Source: Escherichia coli
Lineage (GTDB): Bacteria; Pseudomonadota; Gammaproteobacteria; Enterobacterales; Enterobacteriaceae
NCBI RefSeq assembly: GCF_003019035.1
Contig: NZ_CP027447.1
Length of the DNA stretch: 64,000 nucleotides
Reading direction: 5' to 3' (one strand)
Part shown: positions 1,630-42,355 of the stretch, one piece after another
Layout of the letters: the number at the start of each line of letters is the position of its first letter
How positions within the stretch are numbered: the first letter of the stretch is position 1
Notes under the pieces: generated by a model
The model's database searches: none
The model's input: the letters and a program-made list of their open reading frames with translations, nothing else
Told to the model about the DNA's origin: nothing
Program-made: the position numbers and the translations under genes

Positions 1630-2091
1630 TCATGCTGCCGGGCTTTGTCCCTTTACCAGTTGGCTTAAATTCACCGGCACATTGTTTTCAATGGCGGTAT
1701 ATAAGCTGTCGTAAACGCCAGCGATTTTTTCGAGATAGTGTTCCAGAACCTGTTCGCGATCGCGGATGTTGACCTTGCCATCAATCATGCCGTCAATGCT
1801 CAGTTGCGCCTGCGCAATCCGCTGTTTGTCTTCACCCTCTTTCGTTTCGACGTAATACTCGATGGTGTGGCTGTTAAAGCCATCCGCCAGGGTGACGTAA
1901 ATACGAAAATGTTCAAAAAGGACGAAACAGAGTTCTTTGTCCGGCGCGCAGCTCATGGCGTGATGCAGGCGCGCTTTCGATAACGTGATCCCCTGAACCA
2001 GCGAATTACAGTAGATGTGCCACTGGTCCTGTAGGCGACGATGCCGCTGTGCGATGTAATCGGCTTTCTCGCTTATTTCCCAAATAGTCAT
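1630..2091 (-). CDS. hycA: Formate hydrogenlyase regulatory protein HycA (153 aa)
   Basis: ORF of 153 aa, first gene of hyc operon, divergent from hypA. Confidence 0.88.
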   Translation of the reverse strand: MTIWEISEKADYIAQRHRRLQDQWHIYCNSLVQGITLSKARLHHAMSCAPDKELCFVLFEHFRIYVTLADGFNSHTIEYYVETKEGEDKQRIAQAQLSIDGMIDGKVNIRDREQVLEHYLEKIAGVYDSLYTAIENNVPVNLSQLVKGQSPAA

Positions 2092-2127
2092 TGTCAGGTT
2101 ACCCGTTTAACAGAGATGCCAGCTTTA

Positions 2128-2143
2128 AGCATTTTTTATGCCA
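2128..2143 (-). promoter_or_regulatory. Sigma-54 -24/-12 promoter element for hyc operon (TGGCAT-N-TGCT on minus strand)
   Basis: Reverse complement reads TGGCATAAAAAATGCT with GG-N10-GC spacing, ~35 nt upstream of hycA start; FhlA-dependent operon. Confidence 0.5.
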
Positions 2144-2256
2144 ACTTTTAATTCATTGTTATTAAAACGATTTTTAAGCTAAAGATGAATTTCGTCGCCG
2201 TGTCGACGTGTCATTTCGACATCATCGACATTATTTACCGCAGGGATAATCAATGC

Positions 2257-2272
2257 TGGCACAATTATTGCT
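2257..2272 (+). promoter_or_regulatory. Sigma-54 -24/-12 promoter for hyp operon (TGGCAC-N5-TTGCT)
   Basis: Exact match to TGGCAC-N5-TTGC consensus ~30 nt upstream of hypA ATG. Confidence 0.6.
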
Positions 2273-2302
2273 TGTAGCTGGCAATAGTTAATGGGAGGCG
2301 AT

Positions 2303-2653
2303 ATGCACGAAATAACCCTCTGCCAACGGGCACTGGAATTGATCGAACAGCAGGCCGCAAAACACGGCGCAAAACGCGTAACTGGGGTCTGGCTCAAAAT
2401 TGGCGCATTTTCTTGTGTCGAAACCAGCTCTCTTGCCTTTTGTTTTGATCTGGTTTGCCGCGGCAGCGTGGCGGAAGGTTGTAAACTGCACCTCGAAGAA
2501 CAAGAGGCCGAATGCTGGTGTGAAACATGCCAACAGTATGTGACGCTACTGACCCAGCGCGTCCGCCGCTGTCCACAGTGTCATGGTGACATGCTACAGA
2601 TTGTGGCAGACGACGGTTTACAGATTCGGCGGATAGAAATAGACCAGGAGTGA
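2303..2653 (+). CDS. hypA: Hydrogenase nickel incorporation protein HypA (116 aa)
   Basis: ORF with CxxC...CxxC zinc motif; start chosen at MHEITLCQ; operon context. Confidence 0.9.
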   Translation: MHEITLCQRALELIEQQAAKHGAKRVTGVWLKIGAFSCVETSSLAFCFDLVCRGSVAEGCKLHLEEQEAECWCETCQQYVTLLTQRVRRCPQCHGDMLQIVADDGLQIRRIEIDQE

Positions 2654-5920: not shown

Positions 5921-5993
5921 TAAAATTCTAAATCTCCTATAGTTAGTCAATGACCTTTTGCACCGCTTTGCGGTGCTTTCCTGGAAGAACAAA

Positions 5994-8072
5994 ATGTCAT
6001 ATACACCGATGAGTGATCTCGGACAACAAGGGTTGTTCGACATCACTCGGACACTATTGCAGCAGCCCGATCTGGCCTCGCTGTGTGAGGCTCTTTCGCA
6101 ACTGGTAAAGCGTTCTGCGCTCGCCGACAACGCGGCTATTGTGTTGTGGCAAGCGCAGACTCAACGTGCGTCTTATTACGCGTCGCGTGAAAAAGACACC
6201 CCCATTAAATATGAAGACGAAACTGTTCTGGCACACGGTCCGGTACGCAGCATTTTGTCGCGCCCTGATACGCTGCATTGCAGTTACGAAGAATTTTGTG
6301 AAACCTGGCCGCAGCTGGCCGCAGGTGGACTATACCCCAAATTTGGTCACTATTGCCTGATGCCACTGGCGGCGGAAGGGCATATTTTTGGTGGCTGTGA
6401 ATTTATTCGTTATGACGATCGCCCCTGGAGCGAAAAAGAGTTCAATCGTCTGCAAACATTTACGCAGATCGTTTCGGTCGTCACCGAACAAATCCAGAGC
6501 CGCGTCGTTAACAATGTCGACTATGAGTTGTTATGCCGGGAGCGCGATAACTTCCGCATCCTGGTTGCCATTACCAACGCGGTGCTTTCCCGCCTGGATA
6601 TGGACGAACTGGTCAGCGAAGTCGCCAAAGAAATCCATTACTACTTCGACATTGACGATATCAGCATCGTCTTACGCAGCCACCGTAAAAACAAACTCAA
6701 CATCTACTCCACTCACTATCTTGATAAACAGCATCCCGCCCACGAACAGAGCGAAGTCGATGAAGCCGGAACCCTCACCGAACGCGTCTTCAAAAGTAAA
6801 GAGATGCTGTTGATTAATCTCCACGAGCGGGACGATTTAGCCCCCTATGAACGCATGTTGTTCGACACCTGGGGCAACCAGATTCAAACCTTGTGCCTGT
6901 TACCGCTGATGTCTGGCGACACCATGCTGGGCGTGCTGAAACTGGCGCAATGCGAAGAGAAAGTATTTACCACTACCAATCTGAGCTTACTGCGCCAGAT
7001 TGCCGAACGTGTGGCAATCGCTGTCGATAACGCCCTCGCCTATCAGGAAATTCATCGTCTGAAAGAACGGCTGGTTGATGAAAACCTCGCCCTGACCGAG
7101 CAGCTCAACAATGTTGATAGTGAATTTGGCGAGATTATTGGCCGCAGCGAAGCCATGTACAGCGTACTTAAACAAGTTGAAATGGTGGCGCAAAGTGACA
7201 GTACCGTTCTGATCCTCGGTGAAACTGGTACAGGTAAAGAGCTGATTGCCCGCGCGATCCATAATCTCAGTGGGCGTAATAATCGCCGCATGGTCAAAAT
7301 GAACTGCGCGGCGATGCCTGCCGGATTGCTGGAGAGCGATCTATTTGGTCATGAGCGTGGGGCTTTTACCGGTGCCAGCGCTCAGCGCATTGGTCGTTTT
7401 GAACTGGCGGATAAAAGCTCACTATTCCTCGATGAAGTGGGCGATATGCCGCTGGAGTTACAGCCGAAGTTGCTGCGTGTATTACAGGAACAGGAGTTTG
7501 AACGTCTTGGCAGCAACAAAATCATTCAGACGGACGTACGTTTAATTGCCGCGACTAACCGCGATCTGAAAAAAATGGTCGCAGACCGAGAGTTCCGTAG
7601 CGATCTCTATTACCGCCTGAACGTATTCCCGATCCACCTGCCGCCACTACGCGAGCGTCCGGAAGATATTCCGCTGCTGGCGAAAGCCTTTACCTTCAAA
7701 ATTGCCCGTCGTCTGGGGCGCAATATCGACAGCATTCCTGCCGAGACGCTGCGCATCCTGAGCAACATGGAATGGCCGGGCAACGTGCGTGAGCTGGAAA
7801 ACGTCATCGAGCGCGCGGTATTGCTGACACGTGGCAACGTGCTGCAGCTGTCATTGCCTGATATTGCTTTACCAGAACCTGAAACGCCGCCTGCCGCAAC
7901 GGTTGTCGCTCAGGAGGGCGAAGATGAATATCAGTTGATTGTTCGCGTGCTGAAAGAAACTAACGGCGTGGTTGCCGGACCTAAAGGCGCTGCGCAACGT
8001 CTGGGGCTGAAACGCACGACCCTGCTGTCACGGATGAAGCGACTGGGAATTGATAAATCGGCATTGATTTAA
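5994..8072 (+). CDS. fhlA: Formate hydrogenlyase transcriptional activator FhlA (sigma-54 enhancer-binding protein, 692 aa)
   Basis: GAF domains plus AAA+ sigma-54 activator motifs (GETGTGKE, GAFTGA) and C-terminal HTH; start at MSYTPMSD. Confidence 0.95.
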   Translation: MSYTPMSDLGQQGLFDITRTLLQQPDLASLCEALSQLVKRSALADNAAIVLWQAQTQRASYYASREKDTPIKYEDETVLAHGPVRSILSRPDTLHCSYEEFCETWPQLAAGGLYPKFGHYCLMPLAAEGHIFGGCEFIRYDDRPWSEKEFNRLQTFTQIVSVVTEQIQSRVVNNVDYELLCRERDNFRILVAITNAVLSRLDMDELVSEVAKEIHYYFDIDDISIVLRSHRKNKLNIYSTHYLDKQHPAHEQSEVDEAGTLTERVFKSKEMLLINLHERDDLAPYERMLFDTWGNQIQTLCLLPLMSGDTMLGVLKLAQCEEKVFTTTNLSLLRQIAERVAIAVDNALAYQEIHRLKERLVDENLALTEQLNNVDSEFGEIIGRSEAMYSVLKQVEMVAQSDSTVLILGETGTGKELIARAIHNLSGRNNRRMVKMNCAAMPAGLLESDLFGHERGAFTGASAQRIGRFELADKSSLFLDEVGDMPLELQPKLLRVLQEQEFERLGSNKIIQTDVRLIAATNRDLKKMVADREFRSDLYYRLNVFPIHLPPLRERPEDIPLLAKAFTFKIARRLGRNIDSIPAETLRILSNMEWPGNVRELENVIERAVLLTRGNVLQLSLPDIALPEPETPPAATVVAQEGEDEYQLIVRVLKETNGVVAGPKGAAQRLGLKRTTLLSRMKRLGIDKSALI

Positions 8073-41938: not shown

Positions 41939-42091
41939 CTACTTCTTCGATTCGTAAGCGAGAACCGCCTTAAACTCCATACCACGTTCTCTGATACTCA
42001 ACTCACACAACGAGTCGCCTACCATCAGCGTGAATCCCAGTACTGTAAAACACAGCACTATGATTGCCACAAGGGCATATTTTGTCAGCAT
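41939..42091 (-). CDS. hokX: Hok/Gef-family type I toxin (50 aa), likely hokX of the hokX-sokX locus
   Basis: Own translation [52 protein letters not shown] helix + conserved LCE...AYES Hok signature; GGAGG RBS; below 60-aa cutoff so absent from ORF track. Confidence 0.8.
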
Positions 42092-42355
42092 GTCTTGCCT
42101 CCCTGCAAAGAAGAGACTAACATTCGAATTGTTTGGGTTCGAACGCTGGCCTCAGGTTGATAGAAATATCGCCTGGGGCTTTTGTCCATCTGGAACCTCG
42201 CGAATGCTTAACGCCAGACAGCCTCAAGCACCCAACGCCATTCTATACCTGTTAATTCTTCCAACGACGTTCACGTTTAAAATCAGGAATGCTGCTCGCA
42301 AAATAAAAACGCCCCCATCATTTCTGACAGAGGCGTTTAATTTATCCGGCAATAT

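Follow-up and report, generated by a model that had tools for sequence, protein, structure and literature searches.

The 211-bp intergenic region between hycA and hypA occupies exactly positions 2092-2302 of the 64-kb stretch of E. coli chromosome analysed in this study (the whole stretch is called the window), and we are confident that it is the canonical control region of the formate regulon, intact, conserved and ordinary. This divergent hyc-hyp control region is already known, and in the whole analysis no evidence contradicting the overall formate-regulon picture was found. To the left of the region lies hycA (1630-2091, minus strand), the first gene of the hyc operon, which encodes an anti-activator of FhlA of 153 amino acids. 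To the right lies hypA (2303-2653, plus strand, 116 amino acids), the first gene of hypABCDE-fhlA, and the genes hypB, hypC, hypD, hypE and fhlA were all found at full length downstream of it in the list of open reading frames. The cognate activator gene is represented at the fhlA position, at the end of the hyp operon, by a full-length frame of the expected 692 amino acids (5994-8072, plus strand, beginning with MSYTPMSD and placed inside an open reading frame of 5958-8072). This frame we take to be the enhancer-binding activator FhlA, on the basis of the familiar E. coli FhlA sequence and of its operon position downstream of hypE.

Of 5,426 complete E. coli genomes only one lacked a match to a segment of 951 bp around the spacer, and in strain SCU-301, where the genes are annotated as hycB, hycA and hypA, the identity was 100% over the 951 bp. 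At least 99% identity over positions 1450-2400 was observed in only 216 of the 5,426 complete genomes and the others showed 95-99%, hence the window comes from a minority E. coli lineage. The gene identities given in a preliminary description made from the letters of the sequence are thus borne out by the open reading frames and by the genome matches, including K-12, and the formate-regulon architecture which it proposed agrees with the sigma-54 data from K-12 and Salmonella and with the conservation described below. Its remark that the regulon is intact holds for hycB, hycA, hypA to hypE and fhlA, which are full length and are the part covered by the window; hycC is cut by the start of the window, and fdhF and hydN-hypF lie outside it.

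Structural features of two sigma-54 promoters placed back to back were identified in the spacer. The hyp operon promoter TGGCACAATTATTGCT spans 2257-2272 on the plus strand, with its GG at 2258-2259 and its GC at 2270-2271, and the hyc operon promoter TGGCATAAAAAATGCT runs on the minus strand from 2143 to 2128, with its GG at 2142-2141 and its GC at 2130-2129. In both sites the two doublets are exactly 10 bp apart in TGGCAC-N5-TTGCW-like elements. A matrix built from 186 published RpoN promoters (PMC7658346 Table 2) scored the hyp site at 18.8 bits and the hyc site at 13.7 bits, which are ranks 1 and 2 among the 128,000 positions on both strands of the window. The degenerate pattern TGGCAYN5WTGCW has just 2 matches in the 64 kb against 0.5 expected, and as 2 or more were also obtained in 10 of 100 shuffles, the count by itself is weak evidence and the placement is what counts. 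Both matches fall in the one 211-bp spacer and diverge from each other, with the TGG 52 nt from the hycA ATG in one case and 46 nt from the hypA ATG in the other, and the distance from TGG to TGG is 114 bp (2257 minus 2143).

The transcription starts are predicted from the -12 geometry, 12 nt after each GC, at A2117 on the minus strand and at A2283 on the plus strand. The predicted leaders, 26 nt for hycA (2092-2117, minus strand) and 20 nt for hypA (2283-2302, plus strand, with the conserved Shine-Dalgarno sequence GGGAGG at 2293-2298), have the same distances as those listed for K-12 hycA and hypA in PMC4591121. A block of the hycA leader at 2100-2117, TACCCGTTTAACAGAGAT (ATCTCTGTTAAACGGGTA in the minus-strand sense), showed a conservation across genera close to that of the promoters. 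It was also observed that 2117-2148 and 2252-2283 are the arms of an inverted repeat (32 nt, 75% complementary) composed of both promoters and an identical GCTGGCA at the predicted +1 positions; the +1 part is conserved only within Escherichia. This second GCTGGCA downstream of each promoter was considered as an extra sigma-54 promoter and rejected, since it has no GC at -12; it is also unconserved outside Escherichia. An overlapping sigma-70 promoter found no support, as the scan gave one weak match, no more than shuffled sequences did.

Published data on the corresponding loci agree with this arrangement. The hyc/hyp promoters were described as 'divergent NtrA-dependent promoters' by Lutz et al. 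1990, as cited in later papers. The sigma-54 ChIP-seq study of K-12 (Bonocora et al. 2015, PMC4591121) reports the motifs TTGGCACAAAAAATGCT for hycA and CTGGCACAATTATTGCT for hypA, and the two motifs found here correspond to these sites, the hyp site being the very K-12 hypA motif. Genomic SELEX with RpoN holoenzyme recovers the hycA/hypA spacer (Shimada et al. 2021, PMC8743547). ChIP-chip in Salmonella LT2 finds the same promoter pair with the TGGs 114 bp apart, and expression of hycABCDEFGHI and hypABCDE is sigma-54-dependent in Salmonella (Samuels et al. 2013, PMC3844500). The back-to-back sigma-54 promoters of the preliminary description are hence well founded, both in the sequence with its matrix ranks and in comparison with the published hyc/hyp promoters. 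Occupancy of both promoters by sigma-54 is a K-12 and Salmonella result, and in the present strain, where the hyp motif is identical to that of K-12 and the hyc motif is one base off, it may be presumed by analogy.

The closest characterised system is the K-12 pair hycAp/hypAp (Lutz et al. 1990; b2725/b2726), which is the same locus, with a 211-bp spacer and the gene order hycB-hycA / hypABCDE-fhlA. The 811 bp from the hycB start to the hypA start are 99% identical to K-12 MG1655 and the spacers are equal in length. In comparison to K-12 the spacer carries 7 substitutions (2138, 2154, 2167-2168, 2236 and 2254-2255) and no structural difference; none of them falls in the hyp motif or in the intergenic enhancer cluster described below as UAS-A, both of which, like the second cluster UAS-B, are identical in K-12. 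The substitution at 2138 alone was judged to touch a functional element, where the hyc -24 sequence TGGCAC of K-12 becomes TGGCAT. This T occurs in 43 of the 186 promoters of the RpoN matrix and in other genera most hyc promoters have it, so altered hyc regulation is not expected. In Salmonella Typhimurium LT2 the hycA (STM2853) and hypA (STM2854) genes also have back-to-back sigma-54 sites with 114 bp between the TGGs, as here, and the LT2 motifs TGGCATGGAAAATGCT and TGGCATAAATATTGCT differ from those of the window in spacer nucleotides. In S. diarizonae UAS-A reads TGTCATTTCGTCATTGTCGACA.

Between the two promoters is located a cluster of TCGAC(A) repeats, TGTCGACGTGTCATTTCGACATCATCGACA at 2201-2230, which is part of a larger FhlA-type enhancer cluster, UAS-A (2186-2231; conserved core 2205-2231). 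UAS-A consists of TTTCGTC followed by an inverted repeat, TGTCGA-N9-TCGACA at 2201-2221, and a direct repeat, TCGACA-tca-TCGACA (TCGACAtcaTCGACA) at 2216-2230, and it includes the FhlA half-site CATTTCG at 2212. Only one other place in the 64 kb has 4 TCGAC/GTCGA within 60 bp. FhlA binds formate, and upstream of fdhF and hyc it binds the DNA on one face (PMC11291172); its site has been published as a consensus, CATTTCGTACGAAATG (given in PMC4987338 after Leonhartsberger et al. 2000), and as a matrix of the form TGWC-RAWRAT-GWCA. The full 16-mer palindrome CATTTCGTACGAAATG was looked for in UAS-A and dropped, as no whole match was found anywhere and the half-site alone matches. A terminator-like hairpin at 2193-2208 proved to be the GTCGAC palindrome of UAS-A and not a terminator. 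The centre of UAS-A lies at about -98 from the predicted hyc start and at about -68 from the predicted hyp start, and this geometry fits an enhancer about 80-150 bp upstream of its promoter in the case of hyc, with a candidate site for IHF in between. The layout is similar to that upstream of K-12 fdhF, hydN-hypF and hyfA, where GTC/GAC-based repeats (fdhF TTTCGTCACGTCAAAACTGACGACAG; hydN TGTCATCGTCAC...GTCGATGACA; hyfA CGACACGGGTGTCGAA) are found about 100 bp upstream of a -24/-12 promoter. These three systems have one promoter and one proximal enhancer each, whereas the hyc-hyp locus has a divergent partner promoter and a remote cluster in the adjacent operon.

The IHF-like site, TAACAATGAATTA, runs from 2161 to 2149 on the minus strand between the hyc promoter and UAS-A and has 1 mismatch to the consensus WATCAANNNNTTR, a perfect copy of which is absent from the spacer. 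It is enclosed by an A+T tract (2144-2195, 79% A+T), and just about 38 bp separate its centre from the predicted hyc start downstream of it, a shorter distance than many sigma-54 promoters have. Across species, the consensus with at most 1 mismatch occurs 17-19 nt upstream of the hyc TGG in 57 of 81, of which 56 are at 18-19 nt and 27 are perfect matches. IHF binding in the hycA/hypA spacer was reportedly seen by Hopper and colleagues in 1994. As a separate observation, the K-12 FNR ChIP-seq summit which is assigned to hyc (Myers et al. 2013) maps by coordinate conversion to about 2320, at the start of hypA. No convincing FNR consensus was found near 2320; there is a TTGAT half-site at 2340, and a match with 2 mismatches at 2152-2165 overlaps the IHF-like site.

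A second FhlA-type cluster, UAS-B, was identified at 1525-1579 in the hycA-hycB spacer, and it comprises TGTCATTTTTGACG at 1525-1538 and TGTCATTTTCGACACTCATCGACA at 1556-1579. Relative to the predicted hyp start the cluster is 704-758 bp upstream (about -730), and it is downstream of the hyc start. Its element TGTCATTTTCGACACTCATCGACA nearly duplicates TGTCATTTCGACATCATCGACA of UAS-A (2209-2230), on the same strand and 650 bp apart, and the extended pattern TGTCATTT(N0-1)CGACA(N0-1)TCATCGACA occurs in the window at 2209-2230 and 1556-1579 only and in 0 of 100 shuffles. The best FhlA matrix scores in the 64 kb are at 1556-1569 (17.3) and 2217-2230 (16.1), and ranks 1, 2, 6, 7 and 8 all fall within 1525-1569 and 2217-2239 (UAS-B taking ranks 1, 6 and 8), a test which is partly circular as the 13 characterised sites of the matrix probably include the K-12 copies of both clusters. 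The proposal of the preliminary description that the TCGAC(A) repeats are FhlA enhancer sites is supported by the top two matrix scores and by conservation, so that they can be regarded as putative FhlA sites. In this account the intergenic cluster was correctly picked out, and UAS-B (1525-1579) and the IHF-like site (2149-2161) were overlooked; the omission of UAS-B bears on which enhancer serves hyp.

The conservation of these elements was studied by scanning for HycA in one genome per species, which gave 80 Enterobacteriaceae loci and, with the window, 81 spacers from Escherichia, Salmonella, Citrobacter, Enterobacter, Klebsiella, Raoultella, Kluyvera, Kosakonia, Lelliottia and other genera. 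In one of the sources, the metagenome-assembled genome 'Citrobacter sp. HRGM_Genome_0066', a contig with HycA 100% identical to the window was observed beside a contig with a Citrobacter-like copy (85%), and the bin looks chimeric. The hypA / hycA-hycB arrangement is kept in all 80 loci and both sigma-54 motifs are present in all 81 spacers, with the TGG 50-53 nt from the ATG for hyc and 44-50 nt for hyp, apart from one outlier at 58. In a MAFFT alignment of the spacers, where columns of at least about 90% identity were taken as conserved, the blocks found were 2128-2143 (the hyc promoter), 2146-2161 (the region of the IHF-like site), 2205-2231 (the UAS-A core), 2257-2272 (the hyp promoter) and 2293-2298 (the hypA Shine-Dalgarno sequence). 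In the same alignment conservation is far lower in the first GTCGAC (2202-2207) and in the A+T-rich middle. The density of TCGWC/GWCGA motifs per 100 bp is 3.5 between the promoters and 3.8 in the hycA-hycB spacers, compared to 0.6 for the loci overall, and the TCGWC units have preferred positions about 10-11 bp apart. The hycA-hycB spacer varies from 67 to 146 nt across the 81 sequences, and within it GTCATTTTTGAC is present in 79 of the 81 and at least 2 TCGWC in 80 of the 81. FhlA-type sites are therefore conserved independently of their flanking sequence, and this test is independent of the FhlA matrix.

These data also dispose of the view that the motifs are chance matches with neither promoter nor enhancer function, to which we give practically no credence. 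In its favour is the frequency with which 2 degenerate sigma-54 matches arise in 64-kb shuffles (10%). It is refuted by the ChIP evidence from two species, K-12 and Salmonella, by the shuffles for the extended enhancer element and by the conservation of the motifs in all 81 loci, with their position and orientation.

The element between hycA and hycB could also act in another way, namely on the hyc mRNA, through hycB translation or processing, and not as a DNA enhancer. It is transcribed within the hyc mRNA, it is nearly invariant across genera, and GTCATTTTTGACGAAA in UAS-B stands 5-6 nt from the hycB Shine-Dalgarno sequence, all of which would suit such a role. Against it, a DNA element of 22-24 nt is shared with UAS-A in the same orientation, the top FhlA matrix score in the window falls on this element, and an Rfam search of the region and its surroundings gave no RNA family. 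The invariant sequence offers no covariation for a structure, and the element may have a dual role, but taken as a substitute for the enhancer function the RNA explanation is very unlikely. Elsewhere in the window, at 42076-42233 on the minus strand, Rfam gave a match to the sok antitoxin RNA (RF01794, 111 bits), which indicates a putative chromosomal hok/sok-type toxin-antitoxin locus.

The remaining question is the assignment of the two clusters, and we consider it probable that UAS-A serves hyc and UAS-B serves hyp. With UAS-A at about -98 and an IHF-like bend in between, the layout predicted for hyc is the classical one. For hyp, the site between hycA and hycB is said to be the enhancer, as reportedly concluded by Schlensog and colleagues and by Hopper and colleagues in 1994 and by Leonhartsberger and colleagues in 2000, and the assignment rests on this reported work. 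A literature search for a hyp enhancer between hycA and hycB found neither confirmation nor contradiction.

The implicit model of the preliminary description was a different one, with UAS-A as the one enhancer that hyc and hyp share and with an auxiliary role, or none, in hyp for the hycA-hycB cluster. UAS-A is indeed positioned between both promoters, and of its two distances the one to the hyp -24 element varies less across genera (46-48 or 58-59 nt). Moreover, the spacing of the promoters varies just in steps of about one helical turn, as if a single phased complex were formed, and central shared enhancers exist at other divergent sigma-54 pairs. One of these is zraP / zraSR (hydHG), for which PMC4987338 cites Leonhartsberger et al. 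2001 and where two divergent sigma-54 promoters lie in one short spacer, the activator gene belongs to one of the operons and a single central ZraR enhancer is thought to serve both promoters. Unlike zraP / zraSR, the hyc-hyp locus has a second, distal cluster, which is reported to serve hyp; footprinting and in vitro work is likewise reported to give the distal site to hyp. Further, just about 68 bp separate the centre of UAS-A from the predicted hyp start, a short stretch for unaided looping, and no IHF-like site was seen on that side. UAS-B is kept in 79-80 of the 81 species even though the spacer around it ranges from 67 to 146 nt, so it needs a function. On balance a single shared enhancer seems somewhat unlikely, and the division of labour between UAS-A for hyc and UAS-B for hyp is preferred.

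The promoter spacing hints at a further level of organisation. From TGG to TGG the 81 sequences show solely 92, 102-103 and 112-116 bp. The classes differ by roughly one or two turns of the helix, a hint that the complex as a whole may be phased rotationally; as they follow clades, the evidence is thin, with just about 3-5 independent indel events behind it. It is doubtful, and we put it forward as a speculation, that a single nucleoprotein complex in helical phase is built on both promoters, the IHF site and UAS-A. If this were true, both promoters would receive a contribution from UAS-A, and the rotational phase would govern the coordinated or competitive firing of hyc and hyp, a step further than the textbook model, which has one enhancer for each promoter.

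In the mechanism proposed with UAS-A assigned to hyc and UAS-B to hyp, RNA polymerase-sigma-54 occupies both divergent promoters, 114 bp apart, as closed complexes, sigma-54 binding being known from ChIP and gSELEX in K-12 and Salmonella (PMC4591121, PMC8743547, PMC3844500). One promoter drives hycABCDEFGHI leftward and the other hypABCDE-fhlA rightward, both operons depend on FhlA as well as on sigma-54, and fhlA is transcribed from PhypA and PhypB. FhlA would bind the TCGAC/GTCAT-type repeats, about one per helical turn, and open the promoters by ATP hydrolysis. Bending at the IHF-like site and the A+T tract would bring FhlA bound at UAS-A to the hyc promoter, and UAS-B would most likely activate hyp by looping from about 0.7 kb. 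As the hyp operon ends in fhlA and the hyc operon begins with the anti-activator gene hycA, the arrangement would couple positive with negative feedback on formate in one loop.

This study has dealt with a textbook case of how sigma-54 and enhancers control hydrogen production in fermentation, which has been known since 1990 and with which the genome-wide ChIP data agree. As a discovery it has small weight; it serves as a positive control, in which a real regulatory architecture was recognised from raw sequence. The comparison across genera gives a compact map of the parts of this control region which have been under selection, namely both promoters, the IHF-like site, the UAS-A core and the hycA-hycB cluster.
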